Source: Candidatus Yonathbacteria bacterium RIFCSPLOWO2_01_FULL_47_33b (GTDB lineage Bacteria; Patescibacteriota; Minisyncoccia; Phycocordibacterales; UBA1550). Taken from it: a stretch of DNA of 64,000 bases. The notes under the pieces are model-generated. The model searched no databases and had not been told where the DNA came from. It was given only the letters and a program-made list of their open reading frames with translations. A program made the translations under genes and the position numbers. The DNA lies in the NCBI GenBank assembly GCA_001823575.1, contig MHUW01000007.1, positions 24,223 to 88,222 on the forward strand, written 5' to 3'. Shown here piece after piece: positions 4,836-50,805 of the stretch. Numbering within the stretch: the stretch's first letter is position 1; every line of letters begins with the position of its first letter.

Positions 4836-5153
4836 ATGAGCCCCGCACATCCCATGTTCCTTACCTTTTGCGACATGTTTCCTCGTATCTCCCAGGAGTT
4901 GCAGGAAGAACTTATTGAACAAATTCCCCAGCGTGTTTTTGCCAGAGAGGAAATTGGATTTTTCACCCTTTTGCTGGTCAGGGGGGTTTCAATCAATGGT
5001 TGCACATGTCGAGTATATTTCAATGAAGCATTTTCTCCCTTTGATCTACTAACCATTGCTGACTTCGTTAATCATTACAAGGATGCCTTAATGTGGTTCC
5101 ACCAGCGCGTGCGCATTTTGAAGATAAACCAACAACTCAAAAAACCTCGGTAA
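4836..5153 (+). CDS. hypothetical protein
   Basis: SD GGAGGTG upstream. Terminator downstream. Confidence 0.55.
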   Translation: MSPAHPMFLTFCDMFPRISQELQEELIEQIPQRVFAREEIGFFTLLLVRGVSINGCTCRVYFNEAFSPFDLLTIADFVNHYKDALMWFHQRVRILKINQQLKKPR

Positions 5154-20388: not shown

Positions 20389-20397
20389 ATATTAAAT

Positions 20398-20439
20398 ATT
20401 ATCACAGAGTTGTATCTATAGATACAACTCTGTGATAAT
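20398..20439. promoter_or_regulatory. perfect palindrome (putative operator), copy 2, sharing a 36-bp core with copy 1
   Basis: ATTATCACAGAGTTGTATCTATAGATACAACTCTGTGATAAT, located 10 bp upstream of the regulator's ATG. Confidence 0.7.
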
Positions 20440-24506: not shown

Positions 24507-24514
24507 TATTTTTA

Positions 24515-27819: not shown

Positions 27820-27852
27820 ATTGAATATTGTAGCACAATCAATCGCGCTATT

Positions 27853-30865: not shown

Positions 30866-30882
30866 ACATTAAGTATACCAAT

Positions 30883-31143
30883 TTATGATGCACAAGTCCC
30901 CAATTTGATGAGCGAAAGTTTCTCTTCCTTACTCAATCTTTTTATCTCACCCTCACGAGCGCGAGACTCGGCAAATGTCTCAACCGTCTCAGAGTATCTC
31001 AAAACTACTGGACGGCGGATTTTGGTATAGTGTGCGCCGCTTTTGAGATGGTTATGTTTATGAAGCCTCTTTTCAAGATCGTTGGTCGACCCAGTATAGA
31101 GCGACCCGTCTGAGCATTCAAGTATGTATACAAAATAAGGCAT
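30883..31143 (-). CDS. GIY-YIG nuclease-family small protein (UPF0213-like)
   Basis: FVYILECSDGSLYTGSTNDLEKRLHKHN. The track start 31161 adds 6 aa. Confidence 0.8.
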   Translation of the reverse strand: MPYFVYILECSDGSLYTGSTNDLEKRLHKHNHLKSGAHYTKIRRPVVLRYSETVETFAESRAREGEIKRLSKEEKLSLIKLGTCAS

Positions 31144-33639: not shown

Positions 33640-33675
33640 AAAAGGCTTCCTCACGGAAGCCTTTTTTCTTTTTAC
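33640..33675 (+). terminator. rho-independent terminator
   Basis: aaaaggcttcc-tcac-ggaagcctttttt. Confidence 0.7.
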
Positions 33676-35144
33676 CCCCTCCTCAGCACCTCAAAGATCT
33701 CTACCATCGCCATCGTGTCGAGGGCGCAGTATTTGAGAAGGTTTGCTTTTGTTTTTTCAATATCTTCATCACTCATACCACCCCTGATCATCTTTTCCCA
33801 TTCGCTGAGCGCCATGGTGCCATTTTGAATATCGAGCGTCTTGTATGAGAGTTCGGGCAAAAGCACGGGCAATACTTTTTTAATAGATGCACTTCCCTGA
33901 AAATCTGGATGTTGATAGTCATCCTTAAAAATTTTCATCAAGTCAAAAACTCTACTGTTGATATCTTCGAGAAAACCGCGATGCTCGGGGTGCAGCTCAG
34001 CGAGCTCCATATTGCGCCCCTTCTCAAATGACTCATACCACACAATGACGCTGCCCACGGGCCCTACACAGCCTCGCAGGGCATCTAGGAGGCCATTTGT
34101 TGCGCCAGGCAGTCCACCCGCAAGGTATTCAAAGTGCTCAAGCGTGCCATCCGCATCAAGCTTGTGCACCGACACCTGAAAGACAATTTGCTGGTTTGTT
34201 TTGTACCCGTCGAGAAGTGGTATGGGCGTGCCGTAGGTTTCGTAGTCGAGAAAGTACAGTGGAAAGGTGAGCTGCGAAAGTGTTTCATCTATTCCTTCTG
34301 TATTGATAATCGGCCGACCCGTTTTTTGTAACGTAACCTTGTCACGCTGTATGTCGGTCAAGTCAAAGTCTTCGGGAATATCTGCAATCTCTAAAACACC
34401 CATATCTAAAAGTTGACGGAGTTTATTCCCCTGCACAATGTGATGCACCGAGTACTCCGGCACCTGCGGATTGAATTTATGGAAACAATCACACCGCTGA
34501 CCGTGGCTCTTATACAAACAGTCACACCCCACGAGCGAAATTTCATCCTTTGCAAGCATTACGAGTGCCCGTTCAATCTCTGCTCGCACCACCTCCTTTT
34601 CCTCATGTATCTGCTCGGTGACGTTCTCAATAATAAAAAGCTGGTTGATATCTACCTCGCCTGCACGGCGATATTCTTTGTTGATATAAATGATGTAACT
34701 ATCGCCCACGTTCACCCCTGCATCCTCGGCGACAATCGTCTGAAACCCGACATCCTTTATATGATTATGCTTGAGGTCGGTCTTGATCTCCGAGCTCGCC
34801 TTTACTTCATAAATATCCCACTTCCCTGTCTCGGCGTTAAAATTCAAAATATCTATTTTTGCAAAGAGCCCTTGCTTGGTCTCAAACGTCGCTTGAAAAA
34901 TCGAGTTGCTCCCCTGCAAAAGCTCCTGCGTACGCGCAAGCAGTGTCTCTTTGTTCCCCGTCACAAACACGCCGTCAGGAAAAAGCTTTTGCACATACTC
35001 CTCCACCTCGTACCCGTCCTTGATGAGCTTTTGCAGAAACAGCGAAAACTCGCCAGGGGTATATTCCTCCGGTCGCTTTTTCTTGAGCCACAAACACTTG
35101 TCGCACAAAAGAAATTCCTTAAAATCGGTTTTGGTGAGGGTCAT
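33672..35144 (-). CDS. DUF2779-like protein (Cas4-like PD-(D/E)XK nuclease N-terminus with Cys cluster + RNaseH-like/DEDD exonuclease-like C-terminus)
   Basis: CDKCLW...C, YEVK, GCDCLYKSHGQRCDC and FLDYETYGTPIPL motifs. The ATG abuts the upstream gene's stop. Confidence 0.65.
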   Translation of the reverse strand: MTLTKTDFKEFLLCDKCLWLKKKRPEEYTPGEFSLFLQKLIKDGYEVEEYVQKLFPDGVFVTGNKETLLARTQELLQGSNSIFQATFETKQGLFAKIDILNFNAETGKWDIYEVKASSEIKTDLKHNHIKDVGFQTIVAEDAGVNVGDSYIIYINKEYRRAGEVDINQLFIIENVTEQIHEEKEVVRAEIERALVMLAKDEISLVGCDCLYKSHGQRCDCFHKFNPQVPEYSVHHIVQGNKLRQLLDMGVLEIADIPEDFDLTDIQRDKVTLQKTGRPIINTEGIDETLSQLTFPLYFLDYETYGTPIPLLDGYKTNQQIVFQVSVHKLDADGTLEHFEYLAGGLPGATNGLLDALRGCVGPVGSVIVWYESFEKGRNMELAELHPEHRGFLEDINSRVFDLMKIFKDDYQHPDFQGSASIKKVLPVLLPELSYKTLDIQNGTMALSEWEKMIRGGMSDEDIEKTKANLLKYCALDTMAMVEIFEVLRRG

Positions 35145-36149
35145 TTAAGCTGTTTTCTTTTTCTTGCCACTCACAAGCATCGTAAGAATGAGCCCTACCA
35201 TTTTATCCTTGTGTGCAGGGTCGCTCTCGGCAACGAGGAGTGTGATTGCCGTAAGTGCTGGTGGTGTAATGCGCGACGTATCAAGTGCTTTCGCTTTCGC
35301 AAGGAACCATACAAACGCATATGCGCCACTTCTTTTGTTGCCGTCGATGAACGGATGATTTTTGATAACAAAATAGAGGAGGTGTGCTGCCTTTTCCTCA
35401 ACCGTTGGGTACATATCACTACCACCAAACGACTGCATCACATTCCCCACAATACCCGCCACGCTTCCTCGTTCGCGTTCGGTCGCAAAAAGATCTGTCG
35501 CCTCTCCTTTTACAACGAGGGACTCTTTGAGTGTCGCGAGGGCACTCCCAAAAGTCTCGGCTGTAATTTTAACCGATTTCTTGGTAGCACCATTGGTGAC
35601 CAGAGTGTCTTTATCGTAAGCATCAAGCGAAAGCCAAGTATCAGCAAAGAGCGAGATGAGTTCAAGGATTCCCTCAGTGTCCACGGTCGCACCCTTGGGG
35701 AGTAGTGCCTTCACGTCGGCCACCGTCTTCAAAAACGCATCATAATTTTGTGAAATACGAGACTTGTTTATCGTGTAGCCGTCAACGATATGAGCACGGA
35801 GGGTTTTGGTTGCCCATTGGCGGAATTTTGTACCAACTACCGAATTTATTCGATACCCCACGGCAATCAAAATATCGAGATTATAAATATCAACCTCACG
35901 GCGAACCTCTCTGCCTGACTCATTTTGAACTAGTTCCATTTTGGAACTAGTTGCTCCCCGAGCCAGCTCCTTTCCCTTATAGATATTTTGGATATGCTTT
36001 GAAATTGCTTGCGGATTTACCTCAAACATTTCGGCCATCTGCATACGTGTCGCCCACACCGTTTCCTTACCAAAATCACCCCGAAGCTCAATAGCTCCAG
36101 ATTTTGCTTGATAGATTACCACTTCTTTTTTAATTTCTTTCGCTTTCAT
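35145..36149 (-). CDS. RhuM-domain / Doc(Fic)-family fusion protein
   Basis: N-terminal RhuM-like region (YQAKSGAIELRGDF...ILIAVGYRINS) and C-terminal Doc motif HPFIDGNKR. Confidence 0.75.
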   Translation of the reverse strand: MKAKEIKKEVVIYQAKSGAIELRGDFGKETVWATRMQMAEMFEVNPQAISKHIQNIYKGKELARGATSSKMELVQNESGREVRREVDIYNLDILIAVGYRINSVVGTKFRQWATKTLRAHIVDGYTINKSRISQNYDAFLKTVADVKALLPKGATVDTEGILELISLFADTWLSLDAYDKDTLVTNGATKKSVKITAETFGSALATLKESLVVKGEATDLFATERERGSVAGIVGNVMQSFGGSDMYPTVEEKAAHLLYFVIKNHPFIDGNKRSGAYAFVWFLAKAKALDTSRITPPALTAITLLVAESDPAHKDKMVGLILTMLVSGKKKKTA

Positions 36150-36235
36150 TGTAGTGTATTATACCATACCATTTCAGCACACTGTATAAAAAAGCCCATG
36201 CGGAGGCATGGGCTGAATTTCTTTATGTTTTTAAA

Positions 36236-36598
36236 TTATATTTTTGCTGTTGGGCGCTTAGGGAGTCCTTCAATCTTTTTCGCAACCCGTTTTACTTCGG
36301 CCGTGCGACTGAGTTTTTTGTGATTACCAAAGGGCCACATGCGCATGGCACTTTCGCCTTCTACGTGGGTGAATATCCGAAATTTGTGCTCGAACTTTGC
36401 CGCGTTGCATTCCATACGCACAATGAATCGATAAGAGACTTCCACGACATCATGGGGAACATCCTCATTGTCCAACTTGCCACGATAAATCTTGTCATCA
36501 GTGGCGCCACATGATTGCACCAAATCCATCATCGCGGACTCATTGGTCTTTGCATCCTTTGGCTCTACGAACCATGTTGTTACGCGTTCCTTTTTCAT
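36236..36598 (-). CDS. hypothetical protein
   Basis: SD GGGGAG. No recognisable domain. Confidence 0.5.
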   Translation of the reverse strand: MKKERVTTWFVEPKDAKTNESAMMDLVQSCGATDDKIYRGKLDNEDVPHDVVEVSYRFIVRMECNAAKFEHKFRIFTHVEGESAMRMWPFGNHKKLSRTAEVKRVAKKIEGLPKRPTAKI

Positions 36599-36682
36599 CG
36601 CGCTTCTCCCCTGTTAAATATGTTATTGAAAACAACCAACCTGCCCACAACCCTACCACAAAAGCGCAGGAAATCAAGATGC

Positions 36683-36717
36683 CTATCATTTGGAAGCTTC
36701 GCTTCCAAATGATAGGA
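36683..36717. repeat. 15-bp-arm perfect inverted repeat (cctatcatttggaag / cttccaaatgatagg)
   Basis: Read directly. Lies in the 5' leader of the 36598 gene, next to a terminator. Confidence 0.6.
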
Positions 36718-36758
36718 AAAGCCCCCGCCATTAGAAAATGGCGGGGGCTTTTGTCTCG
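36716..36758. terminator. bidirectional terminator with a perfect 15-bp stem
   Basis: aaaagcccccgccat-tagaaa-atggcgggggctttt. Confidence 0.75.
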
Positions 36759-36763
36759 AGAAA

Positions 36764-37189
36764 TTAACTAAGTGATGCTACTTCACGCATGATTTGATCA
36801 AGCTTGGTGTTGATAGCTTCTAGTTGTTTCAGAACTGCATCATTGCTGGTGCCGCTTTCAGCGCGAGGAGCGTACGGAGCGCGGGGGCTGAAATCCTTTT
36901 TAGGAAATCTGTCTCCACCTCTATCCTTATTGAAACTTCCTCCTGCTACATTGAAACAATCCTTGCAGTACACAGGCTTTGCTCCCGTAGGGCGAAACGG
37001 TACTTCGCACGCCTTGTGGCACTCTGAACACGTTGCCTTATAGAGCGTAAACGGCGCATCGCTTGATTTACGATCTCCCCAATTCTTCTTGCCATAACTC
37101 GGCGCACCCGAGCGATTAGCACCAAATGAAGGTTTTCCTCCTCTTGCTCCATAACTCCCACTACCCCCTCGTTTGTTGTATTCTGTCAT
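36764..37189 (-). CDS. Gly/Arg-rich zinc-ribbon protein (CxxC...CxxC)
   Basis: CSECHKACEVPFRPTGAKPVYCKDCF with a low-complexity G/R/S-rich N-terminus. Confidence 0.6.
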   Translation of the reverse strand: MTEYNKRGGSGSYGARGGKPSFGANRSGAPSYGKKNWGDRKSSDAPFTLYKATCSECHKACEVPFRPTGAKPVYCKDCFNVAGGSFNKDRGGDRFPKKDFSPRAPYAPRAESGTSNDAVLKQLEAINTKLDQIMREVASLS

Positions 37190-37282
37190 AAGTACGTGGA
37201 CTATGCACTATATATGAAGAAATAGCAAGGGCGATACTGAAAAGGTCAATTATTCTTAATTAATCTCACCTGTGGATAACTT

Positions 37283-37310
37283 TTGACTTTTTTTACAAAA
37301 AAGTTATAAT
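37283..37310 (+). promoter_or_regulatory. sigma70-like promoter TTGACT-16-TATAAT
   Basis: Hexamers read directly on the plus strand. Confidence 0.5.
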
Positions 37311-37317
37311 ATATAGG

Positions 37318-37395
37318 TCTTTCGGTTTTACCATTAAACCGTAAGGGTATTACATCCTAGGGTAGCCCTCCGCAAGGAGGGCTACTTTGTTTTCT
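37318..37395 (+). ncRNA. candidate small RNA (approx. 78 nt) between a consensus promoter and an intrinsic terminator
   Basis: Promoter at 37283-37310, terminator gtagccctcc-gcaa-ggagggctac + tttgttttc. No ORF. Confidence 0.3.
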
Positions 37396-37972
37396 CTTCT
37401 CGGTGTTTCAAATCACGTCCCCAGATATCTTCTTCGATTTTGAGAACATCAACGTACCCGTCCCCTCCTGTGCGTAATTCTTCAGAGACGTTGTTCTTTG
37501 AGGAATAAGCATACACCTTTTTACCATCTCGCTTCAAATAGGTCACCAAGGCGAGAAAATCAGAATCCCCAGAGAAAAAGATAGCCGTATCATATTTATT
37601 CTTGTAATGAATAACATCAATAGTCATCTCTACGTCCATGTTTCCTTTTTCCTCCACAATATCCCCGTCATCTGAATGAACAGTGATACGTTTGAGTTCT
37701 TTTTTGCGAACAGTAAAACCTAAACCTTTCTTAAGGTAAGTAAAAAATTTATGCTTACCGTCCAATGAATAATCGCGAGTTCCTTCTGCTGGATATGCTG
37801 TGTAATAAAATACATCAATAGTATCCGCTCCATGCTTTTCCTTCAAAAATTTCTTCAATTTTTCAAAATCAAACACCCGTCCCTTCACCTTTTGCGCAGC
37901 CCAAAGGTTCGACGCGTCAATGAAGACGTACACGGCATGCGGTTTCTTTTCATCAGCTGTCATAACAATCAT
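37382..37972 (-). CDS. NYN-domain (LabA-like, PIN-fold) protein
   Basis: VFIDASNLW...IFFSGDSDF signature. Confidence 0.8.
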   Translation of the reverse strand: MIVMTADEKKPHAVYVFIDASNLWAAQKVKGRVFDFEKLKKFLKEKHGADTIDVFYYTAYPAEGTRDYSLDGKHKFFTYLKKGLGFTVRKKELKRITVHSDDGDIVEEKGNMDVEMTIDVIHYKNKYDTAIFFSGDSDFLALVTYLKRDGKKVYAYSSKNNVSEELRTGGDGYVDVLKIEEDIWGRDLKHREEKTK

Positions 37973-38075
37973 TCTACCACATTCTCTGCGAACGCCTCCC
38001 TTAAATATGCTTTTTCGAGAAATTTGAGGTCGGCGAGTTTGGTGGTTTGGAGGGTGCGGAAGATGATAAAAATCC

Positions 38076-38576
38076 TTACTTCAACACAACCCCGAGGTCG
38101 TAGATATCAAGTTTTCCATCGTTGTTTAGGTCACCGCTGTCGAGTGTCCCTTGTTTTTTGTGCAGGTCGTAGATGAGTTTTAGGTATTTCCCAAGCACGA
38201 TGCGCGGAATCTCATACTGTCGTTCCTTGCCATACCATTCAAATGGGTCTCGGCCGCTCTTTTTGGCGTTACAACCGCGACATGCAAGCACTTGGTTATC
38301 AAACGTATCTATCGCGATTTTTACCTTAGGAATAATATGCTCCCATTCAAGCCCCTCCTCAGCGCTAGCACAATATGCACAAGCTTTTTCTTCGTTAAAG
38401 AATTTCTTGTTCTCTCGCAAAATGTTCGATGGTTGCATCTGTCCATCTTTCAATTTTTTATACGAATGCATAACAAACCCGTAATTCTTTCGGTCACCAA
38501 CCGTGCTCCCCGCAATGAGCTTTGCGTATTCCCAATAAATAAGGTCCCGAATTGTTTTTACTGAAGCGTGAGGCAT
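38076..38576 (-). CDS. HNH endonuclease with a dockerin-like C-terminal motif
   Basis: CAYC...EWEHIIP...LACRGCNAKK HNH motif. C-terminal DLNNDGKLDIYDL. Confidence 0.8.
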   Translation of the reverse strand: MPHASVKTIRDLIYWEYAKLIAGSTVGDRKNYGFVMHSYKKLKDGQMQPSNILRENKKFFNEEKACAYCASAEEGLEWEHIIPKVKIAIDTFDNQVLACRGCNAKKSGRDPFEWYGKERQYEIPRIVLGKYLKLIYDLHKKQGTLDSGDLNNDGKLDIYDLGVVLK

Positions 38577-38590
38577 GATATTTTAAATTC

Positions 38591-38962
38591 TCAGTCTGCT
38601 TTTTTGTTTCTCGGGATCTCACTTCGGGGTTCTCTTCGAGATTTATCAAAAATATTTTCCAGCCATCTTACTAGGAAATTATGATGGTCACCACCAACCT
38701 CATCATAACGCCTGCCTGTAAGGTTTCTTGTAACTGCCTTTAAAAATTCGGCTAGATGCTCGATTTGTAACTTAATATTAACATCCTTTGTAGAAGTAGC
38801 CAGGGAGCGCGTCGCTCTATATTCTGAATTAAATATATTCGCAAGCTCCTGTTTATGTTTTCTCTCCTTAATAAAGACTGAGAATTCGTAGGTAATAAAA
38901 ATAACATTAACAACAAATGAGACTATCTGGAGCCACTCTGGGCTTGGAATTATATTTGGCAT
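38591..38962 (-). CDS. hypothetical membrane-anchored protein
   Basis: N-terminal TM. Same operon as the HNH gene. Confidence 0.5.
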   Translation of the reverse strand: MPNIIPSPEWLQIVSFVVNVIFITYEFSVFIKERKHKQELANIFNSEYRATRSLATSTKDVNIKLQIEHLAEFLKAVTRNLTGRRYDEVGGDHHNFLVRWLENIFDKSRREPRSEIPRNKKAD

Positions 38963-38966
38963 AATT

Positions 38967-39140
38967 TTAGTGTTTGGTTGGGTCTACTAATTTATAAGAA
39001 GATCCTAGTTTTAAGATTGGCGGTAATGTTTTCCCTTTTACACACGTGACTTCAATTCCTGTTTCGCCTCCTCTTGGTCCTATTACTTCATACTGCCCTG
39101 ATCTTGGCACCGCTTGCCCTGGTTTAAATGTATTCTTCAT
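38967..39140 (-). CDS. small YjzC-like protein (57 aa), absent from the ORF track
   Basis: Manual translation MKNTFKPGQAVPRSGQYEVIGPRGGETGIEVTCVKGKTLPPI... matches the YjzC-like pattern KPG.KAP.SG.Y...G..GG...LPP. 4-5 nt intergenic gaps on both sides. Confidence 0.45.
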   Translation of the reverse strand: MKNTFKPGQAVPRSGQYEVIGPRGGETGIEVTCVKGKTLPPILKLGSSYKLVDPTKH

Positions 39141-39145
39141 AATTA

Positions 39146-39709
39146 TTATTCAGCTTCATTAAGTTCTTCCTTTTCCTTGCAATATTTTTCAGAAAAGTCC
39201 TTTAGCGCCACCTTGATGTCTTTAAGTTCACCATCCATTACTGCATCGTTTGTTTCTGGTGTTTTGGGAATAAGTAATTTTACTCCACCACCAAATTTAA
39301 ATTCAAAATTATGAGCAGAGTTATCGATTTCAGCAGAAAAACCTGTTTTATCCTTAGAAACAGCTACATTGGTTGATATTTTTTTAGAGCGAGAAATCAC
39401 TTTGGGTGACCAGTTTGCCATTTTTGTTGGATCAACCCCATATTTTTCATAATCAGAAAGAACTTTAGTTACACGTGACTTATAAGTTGCCAGTGAGCTT
39501 GCGCTGAAGTTTTTGTTTTTTGAAAATACGTTCTGGTAAATTTGCTCGATGTTTTTGCTAAATACGTCTATCGAATTGCGCTCCTCTTCATTTAATACTG
39601 CCTCAAACAGCTTCAGTGCTGTTTTAAGTGCCATACCTGTATTGTCAGGGTATTTTCTGCTCTTGACCGCTCTGTCTATAAACTCATATAGATCTTGAAT
39701 TTTTTTCAT
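39146..39709 (-). CDS. hypothetical protein
   Basis: First gene of a 4-gene minus-strand operon downstream of the RM gene. Confidence 0.5.
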   Translation of the reverse strand: MKKIQDLYEFIDRAVKSRKYPDNTGMALKTALKLFEAVLNEEERNSIDVFSKNIEQIYQNVFSKNKNFSASSLATYKSRVTKVLSDYEKYGVDPTKMANWSPKVISRSKKISTNVAVSKDKTGFSAEIDNSAHNFEFKFGGGVKLLIPKTPETNDAVMDGELKDIKVALKDFSEKYCKEKEELNEAE

Positions 39710-39851
39710 GATATTTTTGGGGTTAATTAGTAACTCCTAAATGCTATCACAACTCAACAATATAAGTCAAGTGATAATATAAACAGATTTGTGTATAATC
39801 TGTTTATATGTGGTTTTTAAAGGGTTTTATGTTATTAAAGTTTTATTTGGA

Positions 39852-42800
39852 CTACTTATCAACATTTTTAATTGCAATCATAATCCTATCCGTTTCAACC
39901 AGTGCTACAATCATTTTTTGATAGTGTTCGATGTCTGTGTTGGAGAGTTTGCGGGATTGGCGGTCCTTGAGCCATTTTTGAGCAGGCTGATAGCCACCGA
40001 TGTAGAAATTCCAGGCGACTTCAGGAACATTGCCAAAATACTGCGTGTCATTGATGTACACATTGCCATCTTTGTATTTTGGATATTTCGCCTCGACGGT
40101 GTCGCTTCCCGCCTGAGGAAATGTCGTGATGAAGTTTTTGAGCTTTGGTGATTCCAAAAGATGTAGTGCGCGGAGTTCACCACCGAGCGCAACAAGCTTT
40201 TTGAACGACTCAGTATCTTGAGGATAAGGAACACGCGGAAAATTAATCTTCAAAAACTCTTTATATTTTTCGCGGTAACTTGGTGAGTGCAAAGCGGCAT
40301 AGATGTAATCAAAAATATCTTCGGGGGTTGTCTTGCCGACAATCTTTTCTATTTCATCAACAATTTCTTTTTTGAGGTTCGGTGTTTTTAAGCCGTCTTC
40401 GGTGTAGAGATAGAGGGGGAAAGTATAAGCACCTTCCTTCGTCTGCAAAGAAACGGTACATCTATCAACGAGTGTTTTTGTTAAAAAAATGTGTTTAAAA
40501 TCAGAGCTGCTTTGCTGCTTGGAAACCAGCAGGGCTAAATTATCTTTACCAACCAAATGTTTGTAAACTTTATATCCAGAACGACTAATCAGCTCTGGGT
40601 CATAATAGATCCACACAAAACCAAACGGTCTATACTGCTCTAACTGTATGTAATTTTCATCAAACAACTTCCCTTTAATTCGTTCCGTTAATTTATATCC
40701 ACTTGAGTCGACCACTCGATAAGTAGATTTAAAACTACCACTGTAATTATTTGATAGAAGTTCTTGAATTTTCTTTGTGAGTTTACTTTTATCAAAATCT
40801 GTGAAGAGCGGGTCTCGATCAGTCTGAACACCAGAATTCGAAATCTGAAATAACTCATCAACCTTAAAACCTTTCTCATATTCTTCATTCGCACCAAAAT
40901 CTTTCGGCACAAAAAAATAGTACGGCTCAGAATATTCAAGTTTCTGCCATTTAATATTTTCTACCGACCCAGCATCAAGTGCCTCGAACTTTACTTTTTG
41001 TTTTCCGTAGAGTTCGGTGTGGTACATATCTGCCAACCGCTTTTTCTTTCCGCTTTTCTTTACGAACAGAGAGATAGATACACCCTGTTGAATAGCGAAA
41101 ACGTTTTCGTCCTTCCCTCCGTCAGGTGCTACTTCTTTCTTTTTTGCATTGCCGTGCAGGTCGATAATATAAATCGAGTCAAATGTTTCGAGCAAGTGTT
41201 TGCGCATTTGACGGTGCGTGATTCCGTCGATGAATGAGTTGTTCGTAATCATACCAACAATCCCCTCACCATTTTTCTCAATTAAGTCCTCAGTAAAACG
41301 AATGAATTTTATATAATCATCGTCAAGGTTGATTTTACGCTCGTTCAAATCTTTTTTGTATTCCTTGATCAATTCTGAAATATGTTCACCCTTGTTTTGC
41401 GAGCTGACATTATAGGGCGGGTTGCCCATCACGACCATGATCGGCAATTCGTTTTTTACGCGGTTTGCTTGGTTGGACTCTTCAGTGATTGCTTTACCGA
41501 GACCGATGCTTGAAAATAAGGTGTTTTCTTCTGACTCGCCTTTTTCGAGCGAGTTGGTTAGGTACACACCGAGGCGCGTACTCTCGTTAATATTTGCGCC
41601 AGACTCTTTGATCGTCGAAGAAAGTTTGAGGTGTGCGATAGTGTACGACGCCATCATAAGTTCAAAGCCATGAAGGCGCGGGAGTAGGTCTTCGTTCACA
41701 TAATTGTTCCACCTCCCCTCTTGCCCTGCAAATGATTTTTGGATGTGCTGTATCGCTTCATTCAAAAATGTCCCCGTGCCTGTTGCGGGGTCGAGTACTT
41801 GGACTTTGTGCACCGACACTTTGTGTTTCTTGCCTTGCACCTCTTTCATTATTTCGATTTTTGAATTTTCGGCGAGGCCTTGCGCAAGACCAAACTCTTT
41901 TTTCAAAATGTCATCTACGGCGCGAACAATGAACCGCACCACAGGGAGTGGGGTGTAGAACACGCCCATCTTTTTGCGCTCGGCAGGGTCATACTCCTGC
42001 AAGAAGTCTTCGTAAAAATGAATGATGGGGTCGCGACTGTCGTCCTTGCCCACTTTGTAGTAGTTATGCACGATTGCCTCTACGTCGGCATTAGTAAACT
42101 CTTCACAAAGTTCGTTTACAATAAACTCAATACGTGGGTCAAACGACGAGCCGGCGATGTGGTCAAAAAAATGGCGAAGAAACGGATTGGACGCTGGGAC
42201 TAAATCACGCGCTTCCCTGCGCGAAAAATCCTCTGGTGTATCGTCATAGTACCTTGCAACAAAAAGCCCGTACACGAGCGTCTGTGCATACATATCGGCA
42301 AACTTTTCCTTGTCGAGGTCGGCAAGTAAGAGCTTTTTGATAACCTCGTAGACAGAGAGTAGGTTTTCATTTTTTGCGTTGTCTTCTTGCGCAAGAAAAA
42401 CCTTTACATTGTCGCGGATACGGCGCGCCTTGCCAGCCATCACCTTTGCCAAGACTGAGCCAGACTTTATCGGCTCTTTTGATTCGGTGATGAAGCCGCT
42501 AATTGTGTCCTCGAGAAGCTTGAACGTTTCCTCGTTTGAAACTATTTCTTTTTTGTCGAGCTTTGCGATAACAACCGCCTCGCCGTATCGTGTAGCATTT
42601 TGATAAAAACGAAACTCAAGACAGTTGGTAAGAATAATATTTGAGTATCCGTAATACCTACCCATTTGTTCGCTTTTTTCTATCTCGTCAAGTGAAATAT
42701 TAAGGTCCTTTGCTTCTGCATATGCAACAACGGTCTTCCCTTTAGTAAAGACGAAATCCGGTGCGCCATACTCGCTTCGTTTTGGTTCGTTGTGAACTTT

Positions 42801-42920
42801 TAATTCGGTGATTTTTTCAAACAACTCTTGAAGCGCGGGGCGGTACGAGTGCTCGGTAGCATGTCCGCTTGCGTGCGTTTCAGCGACTTTTTGTATGAAA
42901 TTTTTTACAGTTTGACTCAT
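39852..42920 (-). CDS. Type IIG restriction-modification enzyme, MmeI-like (nuclease + gamma-class N6-adenine MTase + TRD)
   Basis: N-terminal PDFVF...AYAEAKD nuclease motif. MTase motif I VLDPATGTGTFL and motif IV NPPY. Length about 1000 aa. The track start 42959 is not ATG, so the ATG at 42920 is preferred. Confidence 0.85.
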   Translation of the reverse strand: MSQTVKNFIQKVAETHASGHATEHSYRPALQELFEKITELKVHNEPKRSEYGAPDFVFTKGKTVVAYAEAKDLNISLDEIEKSEQMGRYYGYSNIILTNCLEFRFYQNATRYGEAVVIAKLDKKEIVSNEETFKLLEDTISGFITESKEPIKSGSVLAKVMAGKARRIRDNVKVFLAQEDNAKNENLLSVYEVIKKLLLADLDKEKFADMYAQTLVYGLFVARYYDDTPEDFSRREARDLVPASNPFLRHFFDHIAGSSFDPRIEFIVNELCEEFTNADVEAIVHNYYKVGKDDSRDPIIHFYEDFLQEYDPAERKKMGVFYTPLPVVRFIVRAVDDILKKEFGLAQGLAENSKIEIMKEVQGKKHKVSVHKVQVLDPATGTGTFLNEAIQHIQKSFAGQEGRWNNYVNEDLLPRLHGFELMMASYTIAHLKLSSTIKESGANINESTRLGVYLTNSLEKGESEENTLFSSIGLGKAITEESNQANRVKNELPIMVVMGNPPYNVSSQNKGEHISELIKEYKKDLNERKINLDDDYIKFIRFTEDLIEKNGEGIVGMITNNSFIDGITHRQMRKHLLETFDSIYIIDLHGNAKKKEVAPDGGKDENVFAIQQGVSISLFVKKSGKKKRLADMYHTELYGKQKVKFEALDAGSVENIKWQKLEYSEPYYFFVPKDFGANEEYEKGFKVDELFQISNSGVQTDRDPLFTDFDKSKLTKKIQELLSNNYSGSFKSTYRVVDSSGYKLTERIKGKLFDENYIQLEQYRPFGFVWIYYDPELISRSGYKVYKHLVGKDNLALLVSKQQSSSDFKHIFLTKTLVDRCTVSLQTKEGAYTFPLYLYTEDGLKTPNLKKEIVDEIEKIVGKTTPEDIFDYIYAALHSPSYREKYKEFLKINFPRVPYPQDTESFKKLVALGGELRALHLLESPKLKNFITTFPQAGSDTVEAKYPKYKDGNVYINDTQYFGNVPEVAWNFYIGGYQPAQKWLKDRQSRKLSNTDIEHYQKMIVALVETDRIMIAIKNVDK

Positions 42921-42957
42921 AAAAAGTAGGAGTGTTAACAGTTCCCAGTATACCTCC

Positions 42958-42990
42958 AATCAATCTTTAATACAAAAGCCCCAATCGGGG
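42958..42990 (-). terminator. terminator after the MazG-like gene
   Basis: gccccgattggggc followed by ttttgtatt on the minus strand. Confidence 0.55.
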
Positions 42991-42997
42991 CGCTTGT

Positions 42998-43348
42998 TTA
43001 CAGCTTCGTATACTTCGTATGCTTCCCTTTGGCTTTTTCGACGGGGTATTTGGCTTTGTTTTTCTCTATCTTTTTCTCGTGGGCGTCGGCGATGTCGATG
43101 CCGAGGTCGTGACTCATCAAAAGGACCCACGAGAGCACATCCGCGAGCTCCTCGCCTATCTCCTCTTTACCCTCTTTTACATACACCTCTATTTCCTCTT
43201 TGTTTTTCCACTGGAAATGCTCCAGCACCTCGGCTGCCTCGAGCGAGAGCGATATTGCGCAGTCCTTGGGGTTGTGGAACTGCTGCCAGTCGCGTTCATC
43301 CCGAAACTTGGTAATCTCCTCCGTTAATTTTTGAATTGAATTAGGCAT
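42998..43348 (-). CDS. MazG-like nucleotide pyrophosphohydrolase (small all-alpha NTP-PPase)
   Basis: EEI..F...R.W..FH.PK...SL..E..E.LE and EE..D MazG-type motifs. 2-nt gap from the upstream gene. Confidence 0.8.
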   Translation of the reverse strand: MPNSIQKLTEEITKFRDERDWQQFHNPKDCAISLSLEAAEVLEHFQWKNKEEIEVYVKEGKEEIGEELADVLSWVLLMSHDLGIDIADAHEKKIEKNKAKYPVEKAKGKHTKYTKL

Positions 43349-43350
43349 TT

Positions 43351-44409
43351 TTATTGTAGGGATTTTTTTGCTTCATTTTTTGCACGCTCAACCATAAATT
43401 TAACGGCTTCGTTCATATTGGTGTCCTGGATTACAATATCCGGCCGTTTTTCCTGAAATACGCGGTAGACCTCATCAGCAAATGCTTGCCCAATCATCGG
43501 AACACGATCATAATCCATCACGATTATTCTGAATTTCTCAAGCCCCGACAATACACGCCGAGCCTGAGAACGAGAAATATGCACACCACCCATAGTGTAC
43601 AAGCGGACTCGAATCTCTGTTTTATCAAACCCATAATCGCTATCTTCAGCAAGGTTAGTATACTTCTTAAAAATATCGTTCAAATGGTGTTTGTCTTTTA
43701 TATTGATCTTGAAACTCACCTTCGTCCCTTTTTTGATTCCCTTTATTTTTTTAACGAAGATGTCTTTAATTTTGTTATCCGCAATATATTGATACCCGTA
43801 GCTATCAAGTACAAAAAGGTCCCCGACTTTTGATGTGAAGAAAATACCCTCACCTGAATGAAGTTTGGGCGCTGTGGTCATTTTTCCTTTTAAAAGGTCC
43901 TGAATTGCTTCAATCTCAGAGTTAAGGTTGCGTTTACGCATAATGTTACGGTATACACCAACGCCGTAGTCATCAATAACAAAAGAAAGCTCGTTGTCTT
44001 TCAGTAGTACCGTAACCTGAATTATTTCTGACTTGGAATGTTCGATAGCATTATTCAACATTTCTGAAAATGCGAACGTAAAAATACTTTTTATATTTTC
44101 TGGAAGTTTTTTAAACGGTAAAAATGAGCGCTCAACATCATCAAGGACTTTGTGCTCCTCGAGAGATTTGTTTTCTAATTTTTTGGTGTACCTATTTTCA
44201 ATAGTGTCTGGATGGGAATCAGCGTATTCTGGCAAAACATACGCGGCATTGCGAGTCGATCCTATTTTTATAAGTTTTCCTTCGGCGACAAGTTCAGACA
44301 GCATTTTTGAAACATACTGCCTCGTAACACTAAAAGCCGCCACAAAATAGGCACTTTTAAGAAGCCCTTTCTGTTTTGCTATCTTGAGTATCTTTTCCTT
44401 GTTCAGCAT
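43351..44409 (-). CDS. wHTH - GHKL ATPase-like - DUF4325 (STAS-like) protein
   Basis: N-terminal HTH, central FSEMLNNAIEHS (HATPase_c-like) and C-terminal RIIVMDYDRV...GQAFADEV (DUF4325-like). The track starts at TTG 44421. Confidence 0.6.
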   Translation of the reverse strand: MLNKEKILKIAKQKGLLKSAYFVAAFSVTRQYVSKMLSELVAEGKLIKIGSTRNAAYVLPEYADSHPDTIENRYTKKLENKSLEEHKVLDDVERSFLPFKKLPENIKSIFTFAFSEMLNNAIEHSKSEIIQVTVLLKDNELSFVIDDYGVGVYRNIMRKRNLNSEIEAIQDLLKGKMTTAPKLHSGEGIFFTSKVGDLFVLDSYGYQYIADNKIKDIFVKKIKGIKKGTKVSFKINIKDKHHLNDIFKKYTNLAEDSDYGFDKTEIRVRLYTMGGVHISRSQARRVLSGLEKFRIIVMDYDRVPMIGQAFADEVYRVFQEKRPDIVIQDTNMNEAVKFMVERAKNEAKKSLQ

Positions 44410-44462
44410 ATTGTAAACCAATTGTAAACCAATGCTTTTTAATTGTCAACTAATTGTCAACC
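44410..44462 (-). promoter_or_regulatory. promoter built from tandem 11-bp repeats (2x TTGACAATTAG, 2x TTTACAATTGG) giving TTGACA-17-TACAAT, leaderless
   Basis: Repeats read directly. The -10 lies immediately upstream of the ATG. Confidence 0.55.
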
Positions 44463-44513: not shown

Positions 44514-45769
44514 TTAAAGAAACAACAAATCCCTATCCAAATCATCGGACTCGGTGCCTTTTGTTTTGTGTTTGAGGGCGGTGTGAGTTGAAGCGAGGTA
44601 CACCACGCGCTTGCCGAGTTTGTCTTCTAGTGTATCAATGCGTTTGTGGATGGCATCAAACTTGTCGGCCTTGATCGTCCCACCGAACAAATCCGCCTGT
44701 GAAGCATGTCCGGGAACAAGGTCGTGGAGGGTTACTCCTGTGGTGCGGTACAGAACGCCTCCTGTATGTATTTTTTCAAGCTCCGCATGCGCGAGCGCCA
44801 TGAGAATCTCGGGGGAATTTGAAGGTACGGAAAGTGGTATCGAACACGTTACGATTTTGAAATTTTGTGTCTTCAGAAAAATAGAGATTTTCTTGGGCAC
44901 CAATTCATAGTGTCGCGCTTTTTTGCAGGCGTCCTCTATGTTTTTTGAAAGCTGCGACCAGAGAAATGTTTTGTCATTGGTCGCGGGGTGAAATGTTAGC
45001 GTCTTTTGTATGGACGAGTAAACTGTTTTAACCTCTGGGTCTACCTCCATAACCGACTCGCCGCCCAACTCGCGCCAGATAGCTTCGTAGGGTTTTGAGA
45101 GATTTTGTCTGACCCAAGAAATATCTTTCATACTAAAATCTTTGGCAGTATACACGGCCCTCTTGGTGAGAAACTCTGCTGTTTTGGGTCCAATGCCCCA
45201 AACTTTCTTGATTGGTGTCTTTGTGAGGAAATCCGGCGCCGTACTTGTCTCGATGACGGTCAGACCATTTGGCTTGACCCAGTTGGATGCAACCTTGGCA
45301 AGCACTTTTGTTGGCGCGAGACCAATCGACACCGAGAGCCCGAGCTCTTCGTTTACTTCTTTTTTAATACGCTCCGCCATTTGCAGATAGGTCATCTTGA
45401 GTGGTGGCTCGAGTCCCGTGAGATCGGCAAAGCATTCATCAATACTATATTCCTCGACATCATCGGCATACCTGCGCACAATATCAAACATCTTGCTCGA
45501 ATAAAGTGCATATGACTTGTAGTCTCCTGGCAGAATGATGACGCTCGGGAAGTCTCTTTTGACTTTGAATATCGGCATACCGCGAATGATGCCGAGCGCT
45601 TTTGCTTCGTACGACAGCGCCGATACAATCCCCGCTCCTCGCCCGTCACCACCGGCAGACCCTTTAGCGTCGGGTCCTTTGCGACCTCCACCCCCACAAA
45701 AAACGCATCTCCATCAATATGGAAAATCACCTTTTGTTTTATGAGATTATTTTGAGCGAGTGTCTTCAC
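44514..45769 (-). pseudogene. dinB: DNA polymerase IV (Y-family) interrupted by a -1 frameshift in a C4/G4 homopolymer
   Basis: The N-terminal frame (IFHIDGDAFFVGVEV...GEERG) and the downstream frame (IVSALSYEAKALGIIRGMPIFKVK...) are both DinB-like. The junction is at cccc 45630-45633. One extra C/G would fuse the frames. Confidence 0.75.
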
Positions 45770-45992: not shown

Positions 45993-45998
45993 ACAAAA

Positions 45999-46069
45999 CT
46001 GGGGAACTTGGGATCGAACCAAGATTGACGGCTTCAAAGGCCGCTGTCCTACCATTAGACGATTCCCCA
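45999..46069 (-). tRNA. tRNA-Gln (anticodon TTG)
   Basis: Manual cloverleaf: acceptor UGGGGAA/UUCCCCA with U1-A72, D-arm GUCU-AAUGGUA-GGAC, anticodon arm GCGGC-CUUUGAA-GCCGU, T-arm CUUGG-UUCGAUC-CCAAG, discriminator G. CCA is not encoded. Confidence 0.85.
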
Positions 46070-46122
46070 ATATTTAAAACAGCACTTGTGCAGAATACAC
46101 CAAAAGAGATACTTCGGCAACG

Positions 46123-50765: not shown

Positions 50766-50805
50766 ATAGCTATGAGTATACCAGACGTGATAGAATGAGT
50801 AAAAT

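Follow-up and report, generated by a model that had tools for sequence, protein, structure and literature searches.

Two abutting genes, here called A and B, lie on the minus strand of a 64,000-nucleotide stretch of DNA (the window) from Candidatus Yonathbacteria bacterium RIFCSPLOWO2_01_FULL_47_33b (Table 1). Gene A encodes a 334 aa protein that joins the N-terminal part of RhuM to a Doc-type Fic domain. Gene B encodes a 490 aa dual nuclease of the DUF2779 family. The stop codon of A directly precedes the start codon of B, as a first-pass annotation of this DNA had stated. The 86-bp spacer upstream of A comprises a terminator and a promoter-like box, nothing else, and no ORF. The terminator belongs to a 120-aa gene without a recognised family. 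At the other end, the hairpin located beyond B likely terminates the A-B transcription unit.

A is the innermost gene of an island that reaches almost to dinB. In addition to the 120-aa gene, this island holds genes for zf_Tbcl_2, NYN and HNH proteins, two unknown genes, a MazG-like gene, a HATPase+DUF4325 gene and a type IIG restriction-modification (R-M) enzyme (39852-42959). In a related genome (L003), dinB (IMS) directly abuts the DUF2779 gene, while 9.4 kb separate the two in the window. This adjacency, the dip in GC content and the presence of R-M, HNH and NYN genes argue for a variable island. Neither a CRISPR array in the 64-kb window, nor a cas gene among the neighbours scanned, nor an Rfam element near the A-B locus was found.

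Table 1. Genes, domains and signals at the A-B locus (positions in the window)
Feature	Position	Strand	Remarks
Gene A, RhuM-N/Doc-type Fic fusion, stand-alone	35145..36149	-	PGAP name 'virulence protein RhuM/Fic/DOC family protein'; PADLOC candidate PDC-S23
A residues 1-136, RhuM N-terminal module	35742..36149	-	Pfam Virulence_RhuM, partial model
A residues about 198-326, Doc-type Fic domain	35172..35558	-	Pfam, PHROG and PDB 9vzc matches
A residues 265-273, catalytic motif HPFIDGNKR	35331..35357	-	Lys at motif position 8 (Doc/kinase type)
Gene B, DUF2779-family dual nuclease, 490 aa	33672..35144	-	Pfam DUF2779
B residues about 1-225, Cas4/RecB-like PD-(D/E)XK nuclease	34470..35144	-	Invariant catalytic residues and cysteines
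B residues about 295-490, DEDDy 3'-5' exonuclease (RNase H-like)	33675..34262	-	Spans Pfam DUF2779
TAA/ATG junction, A stop abutting B start	35142..35147	-	TAA 35147..35145, ATG 35144..35142
Extended -10-like box TGGTATAAT	36158..36166	-	8 nt before ATG of A
Intrinsic terminator of upstream 120-aa gene	36193..36214	-	GC-rich hairpin, then TTTTTTATA
Hairpin with T-runs	33640..33665		Between convergent 3' ends of B and a 166-aa plus-strand ORF
Variable lower-GC (38-43%) island, gene A innermost	36236..44421	-	Gene content differs among relatives
dinB (IMS, Y-family polymerase), far island border	44547..45763	-	

The ATG of A is preceded by the box TGGTATAAT and lacks a Shine-Dalgarno sequence. 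Given also the distance of 8 nt between box and start codon, the mRNA of A (and B) would be leaderless or nearly so. As judged from the sequence, the box would act as an extended -10 promoter. The first-pass annotation had proposed such a promoter, and the proposal is plausible, since the identical layout, TGnTAnnAT-N8-ATG, precedes all six A homologues examined. In the window, 6 of 59 genes have this layout compared to 0.5% of random positions. B possesses a TGnTAnnAT-N8-ATG of its own in L092 and L093, in which A does not directly precede it; in genomes with A directly upstream, no such layout was found ahead of B. Co-transcription of A and B combined with termination-reinitiation at TAAATG is likely.

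Domain make-up and relatives of the two proteins

The description of A as a RhuM N-terminus followed by a Doc-type Fic motif was confirmed by profile searches and alignment. A matches Pfam Virulence_RhuM (PF13310) with an E-value of 3.8e-21 (76 bits, cut-off 33.7) and Pfam Fic (PF02661) with 4.5e-11 (43.9 bits, cut-off 24; residues 240-283). The RhuM match is limited to positions 2-77 of the 252-position model: The C-terminal two-thirds of canonical RhuM are absent and replaced by a linker and the Doc domain. The same N-terminal module is common to the PADLOC PDC-S05 proteins. Over nearly its entire length, A aligns with PADLOC PDC-S23 (PDLC04965; E 2.2e-109, residues 7-326 versus model positions 4-324 of 327). 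Further matches are the PHROG 'Doc-like toxin' (E 1.5e-14) and, across the motif, PDB 9vzc, a 'Death-on-curing family protein' (E 7.7e-5). The motif HPFIDGNKR agrees with the Doc consensus HxFx(D/N)(A/G)NKR, in which Lys at position 8 turns the Fic fold into a kinase (PMC4177925). H265, D269, G270, N271, K272 and R273 are invariant in 36 relatives, so the motif, whose absence on alignment would have spoken against a Doc fusion, is present and conserved. Judged by their scores, the family matches of both A and B lie far beyond chance.

The first-pass annotation regarded the N-terminus of A as a putative DNA-binding domain. This assignment is left without structural support by a poor model and the lack of a structural match: For A, AF2 gave a model from 36 sequences with a pLDDT of 52.5. 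The C-terminal helices, to be compared with the six-helix Doc core fold, reach just 60-70, and a Foldseek search of this low-confidence model against the PDB returned nothing at E <= 0.001, with DocH66Y (3dd7_A) at E 1.8. A relaxed Pfam scan of residues 1-137 and 128-243 yielded RhuM alone, plus sub-threshold DUF1811 and Phage_rep_O. At residues 31-115, the model, with a pLDDT of about 75, suggests that the RhuM module contains an HTH and a β-hairpin. With a model of this quality, DNA binding and autoinhibition by the N-terminus are conjectural. The Fic α-inh motif [ST]xxxE[GN] occurs once in A (TVDTEG, residue 155). Its E and G vary among relatives, and this occurrence was attributed to chance. 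E. coli DinD was considered as a characterised RhuM relative and discarded: It is Bro-N by Pfam, and its similarity to A is not significant.

RhuM-DOC fusions were already noted by Anantharaman et al. in 2013 (PMC3710099). More than 7,800 homologues (clusters) share the two-domain architecture of A and are named RhuM/Fic/DOC at NCBI. A does not differ in architecture from the PDC-S23/RhuM-Fic-DOC family: It has the same two domains with an invariant Doc-type motif and lacks a partner gene, and members of the family are, like A, found in defence-type islands. The A copy stands out by its occurrence in Patescibacteria, at an island border and abutting a DUF2779 gene. In the literature, no paper naming PDC-S23 and no published experimental validation was found. 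With P1 Doc, A shares the motif including Lys at position 8, and it matches Doc-like profiles. In contrast to P1 Doc, it lacks a Phd antitoxin, carries its Doc domain behind about 200 residues of RhuM-N and linker, and scores below the curated cut-off of NCBIfam TIGR01550 DOC_P1 (29.1 versus 38.65 bits).

For B, the proposed combination of a Cas4-like PD-(D/E)XK/Cys-cluster domain with a DEDD exonuclease is borne out by the family match, the invariant residues and the predicted fold. B covers the complete Pfam DUF2779 model (PF11074; positions 1-126 of 126, E 6e-32, 111 bits, cut-off 23.3). In the PD-(D/E)XK domain, D98, E113 and K115 as well as four cysteines (C14, C207, C209 and C218) are invariant; the cysteines form a putative 4Fe-4S cluster. 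The sequence FLDYETYG spans residues 298-305, and invariant D300, E302, D401, Y472 and D476 provide the four acidic residues plus Tyr in an exonuclease fold that characterise DEDD enzymes of RNase H-like clade F. The AF2 model of B has a pLDDT of 90.6. B is identical (100%) to a deposited Candidatus Yonathbacteria protein. It falls below the cut-offs of the Cas4 profile TIGR00372 (16.9 versus 65 bits) and of the TM0106 RecB-like nuclease TIGR03491 (24.9 versus 97.45 bits), and neither B nor the flanking genes could be assigned to a phage family in a PHROGs search.

B shares the fusion of Cas4-like PD-(D/E)XK and DEDDy domains with the PF11074 family, which comprises family F.17 of Majorek et al. 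(2014), MMSYN1_0389 of JCVI-syn3.0 and UU173-like proteins. Structural relatives, namely Cas4-Cas1 (7MID/7MI4), 4IC1 and MrfB (8UN9), are in common, too. As to the identity of B, a published analysis arrived at the same conclusion (PMC13621843). While B retains four Fe-S cysteines, MMSYN1_0389 has only two (PMC13621843), and B does not reach the cut-off of the NCBIfam UU173 family NF045869 (74.9 versus 225 bits). The likeness of B to CRISPR-associated Cas4 is confined to fold and active site. Because of the exonuclease domain fused to it, B is at best a 'solo Cas4-like' protein and not a CRISPR-associated Cas4. A and B are ordinary members of known families, the architectures of which were published in 2013, 2014 and 2026 (PMC3710099, PMC3985635, PMC13621843).

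Distribution of A and B and the question of a two-gene module

To what extent A and B occur together was determined in reciprocal surveys of 80 A-family genome loci (6-kb radius) and 80 B-family metagenome loci. A B-like gene lies within 6 kb of A in 2/80 loci, and A is found near B in 1/80 loci, 59 of which have enough upstream flank to reveal it. The closest relative of A (89% identity) is followed by RecQ and has no B within 6 kb; after the next ones come a pirin (79%) and a TraG-like gene (75%). Conversely, the closest relatives of B (96% and 91%; sample ERZ27297709) lack A and carry the 120-aa gene directly upstream, with B intact and of the same length. The 138 immediate neighbours of A-family genes belong to 109 Pfam families, none of which is represented at more than four loci. 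On plasmids, copies of A are situated among IS66 and Tn3 elements and never with DUF2779, and a minority of RhuM-Doc family members resides inside type I R-M operons. Plasmid-borne homologues occur in Vibrio, Pseudomonas and Legionella. The DUF2779 family is much more widespread than A and almost never found beside it. The coupling of the Doc fusion to a nuclease assumed in the first-pass annotation does not stand up to these counts and to the empty sites at 96% and 91% identity. Conservation of the gene pair, which had been suggested as a check, does not extend beyond one shallow Yonathbacteria clade.

Most probably, A and B are functionally independent genes that have come to lie side by side at a variable island's edge. 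On this reading, they adjoin because the island ends at a conserved gene and not because they constitute a system.

Within the clade, A directly adjoins B in four lineages (window, L010/L097, L095 and L177). In three further lineages, a RhuM-family gene is located up to 5 kb from B, and in other members A is displaced or decayed. Consequently, the local linkage is real and could hide a lineage-specific interaction. According to this alternative, the RhuM-Doc kinase and the DUF2779 nuclease cooperate as a two-gene module of Yonathbacteria: For example, the nuclease would sense foreign DNA or act on it as effector, with growth arrest left to the kinase, or one would regulate the other, with translational coupling fixing the A:B stoichiometry. 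The zero-gap TAA/ATG junction, the single promoter with terminators on both flanks and the lack of an own promoter of B in the genomes with adjacency fit such a module. So does the persistence of the adjacency in four lineages despite divergence of A to 76-88% identity. However, the gap, which is 0 in the window, amounts to 17, 12 and 11 bp in sister lineages, and tight junctions are common in the compact genome of the window, where 13 of 44 same-strand junctions are at most 20 bp long. An independent adjacency exists in the unrelated genome L051 (Uhrbacteria), but there DUF2779 is directly upstream of the RhuM-Doc gene, i.e. the order is reversed. Furthermore, Cas4-like and RecQ neighbours of A recur at a low level, and B-family genes often adjoin defence genes. 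Against these points stand the rarity of the partner in both surveys and the closest relatives of either gene, which do without the other one. A cooperating module is therefore considered unlikely.

A broader version of this idea, to which little probability is assigned, holds that RhuM-Doc genes of Patescibacteria have a functional connection with enzymes that process DNA ends (DUF2779, solo Cas4-like nucleases, RecQ). It draws only on the local linkage within a single clade and on a marginal surplus, noted post hoc, of these enzymes near RhuM-Doc genes (L001, L012, L019, L024, L038, L051, L059): A solo Cas4-like nuclease is encoded directly upstream of the RhuM-Doc gene in L012 and L038, and RecQ is found near A in L001, L019, L024 and L059. 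The enrichment of these neighbours, which were chosen post hoc, amounts to about 6 of 80 loci versus roughly 2.4 expected in 810 kb by a rough estimate and was taken as not significant. If the connection were true, DNA ends or degradation products arising from the neighbouring nuclease or helicase could serve as a signal for the RhuM module to release the Doc kinase, which would bring translation to a halt. In that case, A and B of Yonathbacteria, with no gap between them, would represent a nuclease-sensor/kinase-effector defence module in its tightest form.

Proposed silencing and role of the RhuM-Doc fusion

A classical type II toxin-antitoxin system, in which the 120-aa gene or B acts as unrecognised antitoxin and neutralises A, is very improbable. 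It would be in line with the Doc-type motif of A, with the missing family assignment of the 120-aa gene and with the pairing with Phd known from previously studied Doc toxins (PMC4177925). However, the 120-aa gene ends with its own terminator, is kept in relatives without A and is located downstream of A in L092. No small ORF beside A recurs in more than 2 of the 80 A-family loci, B is far commoner than A and hardly ever adjacent to it, and PADLOC lists PDC-S23 as a single-gene candidate. In agreement with the view that A does not belong to a classical Phd/Doc pair and has no Phd-like antitoxin nearby, the spacer is free of ORFs, the 120-aa gene is separately terminated, and an adjacent co-transcribed small antitoxin gene was not found. 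In the RhuM-Doc family, no antitoxin is conserved anywhere.

Patescibacteria are mostly episymbionts. That A might be secreted to act on another cell, where it would modify a protein of the host bacterium, is suggested by analogy to BifA (SeseC_01334) of Streptococcus equi subsp. zooepidemicus, which is reported to be such an effector, depends on its Fic histidine for activity and has the same N-RhuM/C-Fic layout (PMC6529018), and by the legacy name 'virulence protein' of the RhuM-Doc family. BifA is described as a virulence factor with human endothelial moesin as its target, in an entirely different ecological setting. Secretion of A is hardly to be expected: Neither a secretion signal nor linkage to a secretion system was seen for A, and members of the family occur in free-living environmental phyla, on plasmids, in transposons and in type I R-M operons. 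This distribution fits intracellular conflict systems (PMC3710099).

If A and B are independent genes, A would be a stand-alone, horizontally mobile RhuM-N/Doc fusion, the C-terminal domain of which is most likely a Doc-type protein kinase. Because of Lys272, ATP should be bound in an inverted orientation. The kinase may phosphorylate a translational GTPase, for which EF-Tu is the precedent, and thereby cause translation arrest. As no antitoxin is conserved in the family, A is probably held inactive by its own RhuM module and the linker until some trigger frees it from this N-terminal silencing. Such silencing would make A a candidate for a one-gene toxin or an abortive-infection-type defence protein. 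The RhuM-Doc family is very large and extends across phyla, plasmids and transposons. How a protein with a kinase-type motif is kept silent without an antitoxin is a testable question.

B, with its Cas4-like Fe-S PD-(D/E)XK domain and its DEDDy 3'-5' exonuclease domain, would process DNA ends on its own account. In the lineage of the window, A may have been inserted, or retained, immediately upstream of B, whereupon B would have lost its own leaderless promoter. B is now probably read through from the promoter of A and translated by termination-reinitiation at TAAATG, which would make the operon incidental. With an island border as the reason for the juxtaposition, the pair as such is of minor importance. 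The dual nuclease DUF2779 is conserved, has quasi-essential status in the minimal cell and here marks the edge of a defence hotspot. Beyond this, the locus cleanly illustrates two things, the leaderless extended -10 promoters of a CPR bacterium and the way in which an inserted gene can take over the expression of the core gene behind it.

The two genes and their products

Protein A (334 aa) joins a RhuM-family N-terminus to a Doc-type Fic domain, and protein B (490 aa) is a DUF2779 protein. The window derives from a Candidatus Yonathbacteria (Patescibacteria) genome, and a deposited Yonathbacteria protein matches B with 100% identity. The ORFs, touching TAA/ATG, motif and extended -10 box described in the first-pass annotation were all borne out. 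Because of a terminator upstream of A and a hairpin downstream of B, both genes look, judged locally from their sequence, like one transcription unit. A 430 aa ORF antisense over the A/B junction (window 34413-35705, plus strand) most likely arises only because the opposite strand is coding. Within gene A, window 35921-35952 holds 1.9 tandem copies of a 17-nt unit (CATTTTGGAACTAGTTC), covering residues ~66-77 (SSKMELVQNES).

Features of the locus (window coordinates)
Feature	Position	Strand	Remark
Gene A	36149..35145	minus	intact ORF, 334 aa
Gene B	35144..33672	minus	intact ORF, 490 aa
A/B junction	A stop TAA 35147..35145	minus	abuts B ATG, zero gap
Intrinsic terminator of 120-aa gene	36214..36193	minus	hairpin, then T-run; upstream of A
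TGGTATAAT box	36166..36158	minus	8 nt ahead of A ATG, no Shine-Dalgarno sequence
Hairpin with T-runs	33640..33665		parts B from convergent ORF downstream
Extended -10-like boxes	36158-36166, 24507-24530, 27820-27845, 30866-30890, 20389-20413, 13071-13095, 50780-50804
Lower-GC island	36236-44421	minus	gene content not the same in any related genome examined
Treble-clef zinc-finger gene	36764-37189	minus	island
NYN gene	37382-37972	minus	island
HNH gene	38076-38576	minus	island
Type IIG R-M enzyme	39852-42959	minus	island; Type_ISP_C
MazG-like gene	42998-43348	minus	island
HATPase + STAS-like DUF4325 gene	43351-44421	minus	island
dinB (IMS, Y-family polymerase)	44547-45763	minus	split over two reading frames
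tRNA-Gln	45998-46070		just beyond dinB

In Pfam, A matches Fic (43.9 bits) and Virulence_RhuM (76 bits, although the match spans no more than positions 2-77 of the 252-position model). Its motif HPFIDGNKR (residues 265-273) follows the Doc consensus HxFx(D/N)(A/G)NKR and not the Fic consensus HxFx(D/E)GNGR; H265, D269, G270, N271, K272 and R273 are invariant among 36 relatives. This confirms the proposed combination of a RhuM N-terminus with a Doc-type motif. The kinase activity of Doc stems from the Lys at position 8 of its motif, through which ATP is bound in the inverted orientation (PMC4177925). The solved 'Death-on-curing family protein' 9vzc aligns with A over the motif (E 7.7e-5), and the PHROG 'Doc-like toxin' profile matches as well. 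Since the DOC_P1 score lies below the NCBIfam cut-off (29.1 vs 38.65), A is a carrier of a Doc-type domain and not a P1-Doc orthologue. A single match to the Fic-type inhibitory motif, TVDTEG, is not conserved in relatives and was rejected. A matches the PADLOC single-gene phage-defence candidate family PDC-S23 end to end (E 2.2e-109), and its N-terminal 136-220 residues match the RhuM candidate family PDC-S05. Its two-domain architecture is common to >7,800 database clusters and carries the NCBI name 'virulence protein RhuM/Fic/DOC family protein'.

The N-terminus had been called putatively DNA-binding. AF2 models A poorly (pLDDT 52.5), with moderate confidence only at residues 31-115 (helix-turn-helix and beta-hairpin), and neither Foldseek nor a relaxed Pfam scan yielded a significant match; DNA binding therefore stays a guess. 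Proteins of Streptococcus satellite phages 'Javan' (phage collection H17-H25), annotated by their depositors as 'putative DNA-binding protein', show similarity to A that is confined to its N-terminal half (residues ~9-185, 32-34% identity). Mobile elements thus carry the RhuM-N and linker module in a form that lacks Doc.

In B, DUF2779 covers residues 297-420 (Pfam, E 6e-32), and residues 1-195 show weak Cas4/RecB-like matches. D98, E113 and K115, four cysteines (C14, C207, C209, C218) and the DEDDy set D300, E302, D401, Y472 and D476 are invariant, in agreement with the predicted Cas4-like PD-(D/E)XK domain with Cys cluster and DEDD-like exonuclease. This dual-nuclease architecture has already been published (Majorek et al., 2014, PMC3985635; mSphere 2026, PMC13621843). 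Both proteins are ordinary members of known families.

Neighbourhoods of the two families

A survey of species-representative genomes from many phyla covered 80 A-family loci, of which only 2 have a B-like match within 6 kb. In the first, DUF2779 is located directly upstream of A, in reverse order, and in the second a fragment lies 3.8 kb away. Among 80 B-family metagenome loci (59 with >=1.1 kb upstream flank), A is found near B in the sister lineage only. The earlier proposal that A is coupled to B as a unit is thus not supported. Genes at ±1/±2 around A, 281 in all, make up 243 clusters, and its 138 immediate neighbours match 109 Pfam families, the commonest of which, N6_Mtase, occurs in 4. 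A and B are not a conserved system. The architectures of their families are known from earlier publications and from annotation pipelines. We consider it probable that they are independent genes in an incidental operon. A lineage-specific functional A-B module is improbable: it could draw on the local linkage and on recurring DNA-processing neighbours of A, i.e. DUF2779 (L051), solo Cas4-like (L012, L038) and RecQ (L001, L019, L024, L059), a marginal and post hoc pattern.

Plasmid copies of the A family lie amid hypothetical genes and IS66 and Tn3 elements. On the Legionella pneumophila plasmid NZ_CP016875.1 (L180:2097-6002), the RhuM/Fic/DOC gene starts at 4968, immediately after a transposase gene of the Tn3 family that ends at 4967; this further junction without a gap, here to an unrelated upstream gene, indicates that transposons carry the family as cargo. 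On JAHFMX010000003.1 (L067/L068), two copies of RhuM-Doc 11 kb apart share the same flanks and look like a segmental duplication. A canonical 299 aa Fic gene recurs beside RhuM-Doc (69% identity between L001 and L051; also L048, L091). The order is Fic - DUF2779 - RhuM-Doc in an Uhrbacteria genome (L051:3699-6924) and dinB - Fic - RhuM-Doc - RecQ on a Yonathbacteria-like contig (L001:3709-9171).

B-family loci elsewhere are likewise often flanked by genes of defence type, namely SF1 helicase-nuclease giants, HerA, HsdR or GmrSD, together in ~1/4 of loci. SF1 helicases of 1,500-1,640 aa (AAA_11/AAA_12 with topoisomerase-type zinc ribbon; cluster of 8) lie directly upstream of DUF2779 on several unrelated contigs, including the B-family metagenome loci L112, L143, L167 and L168. 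HerA-like, HsdR and GmrSD+DUF4357 neighbours recur ~4 times each.

A variable island beside B

Among close relatives, two have an empty site in which the 120-aa gene is followed by B: P0122 (B identity 96%, 81 bp) and P0128 (91%, 80 bp). A adjoins B in L010/L097 (92%, 17-bp gap), L095 (91%, 12 bp) and L177 (90%, 11 bp). In L092 (92%), A precedes the 120-aa gene, and a 744-aa gene is inserted ahead of B; in L093 (89%), GDPD is directly upstream of B; in L003 (83%), dinB takes that place and A is 4.8 kb away; L094 (80%) has no A. A diverges faster than B (82% vs 92% in L010, 76% vs 91% in L095), and in the genome of its nearest relative it does not adjoin B. The A relative at 89% is preceded by a Fic gene and dinB and followed by RecQ; that at 79% is followed by pirin, with DUF2779 4.8 kb off adjoining dinB; that at 75% is followed by a TraG-like gene. 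Upstream of DUF2779, L093:470-3240 carries a full-length non-Doc RhuM (331 aa, Pfam model positions 19-248), an N-terminal RhuM-Doc fragment of 171 aa and a relic of 26 aa, which indicates that effector domains have been swapped and have decayed in one and the same hotspot.

The 36-44 kb stretch has a GC content of 38-43% compared with ~47%. It also comprises several genes lacking any family. At the same position, relatives have different conflict genes, encoding an EcoRI-type methylase, GmrSD, a NERD protein, zeta toxin, a MutH-like protein with DNA methylase or a type I/III restriction enzyme. In L003, dinB and DUF2779 are directly adjacent. Together with the variable island content, this puts A innermost in the island and makes B the gene with which the conserved side begins; most members of the clade also have GIY-YIG, TspO and cupin genes downstream of B. 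The split dinB homologue (two tblastn pieces; ORFs 44514-45578 and 45392-45769) could be a pseudogene or could result from a frameshift or an assembly error. Closely spaced genes are the norm in this genome: of 44 same-strand junctions, 13 measure <=20 bp and 6 <=5 bp.

TGnTAnnAT is found exactly 8 nt ahead of the ATG in all six A homologues examined. In genomes without A directly upstream (L092; L093 similar), B shows this layout too, and it lacks it where A directly precedes it. B in this lineage has probably come to depend on the A promoter and on termination-reinitiation at TAAATG, which would be a by-product of insertion. Extended -10-like boxes (TGnTAnnnT) ending 5-10 nt before start codons occur at 6 of 59 window genes vs 0.5% of random positions, and a Shine-Dalgarno-like core at only 11 of 59, which suggests that leaderless transcripts are widespread in this Yonathbacteria genome.

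Proposed action of A and B

The likeliest role of A is that of a protein kinase of the Doc type, which would stop translation; EF-Tu is the precedent for its target. Because the family is without antitoxin, the RhuM-N and linker part of A probably restrains the enzyme within the same molecule. Kinase target, trigger and autoinhibition are what we infer. A would serve on its own as a toxin or as a defence gene of the abortive-infection type, in line with its status as a PADLOC candidate, the island and R-M contexts and the proposal of Anantharaman et al. (2013, PMC3710099). A cryptic type II toxin-antitoxin pair is very unlikely: the 120-aa gene has its own terminator and is found without A, and no small ORF adjoining A recurs in >2 of 80 loci, which upholds the earlier remark that no Phd-like antitoxin is nearby. 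Equally unlikely is a secreted effector like BifA (PMC6529018), as the A-family distribution does not fit and no sign of secretion was seen. For A and B, what remains of interest is generic to the families: the control of an antitoxin-less Doc kinase and the role of DUF2779. B is predicted to be an independent DNA-end-processing nuclease; its DUF2779 relative in the minimal cell JCVI-syn3.0 has been classed as quasi-essential (PMC13621843).
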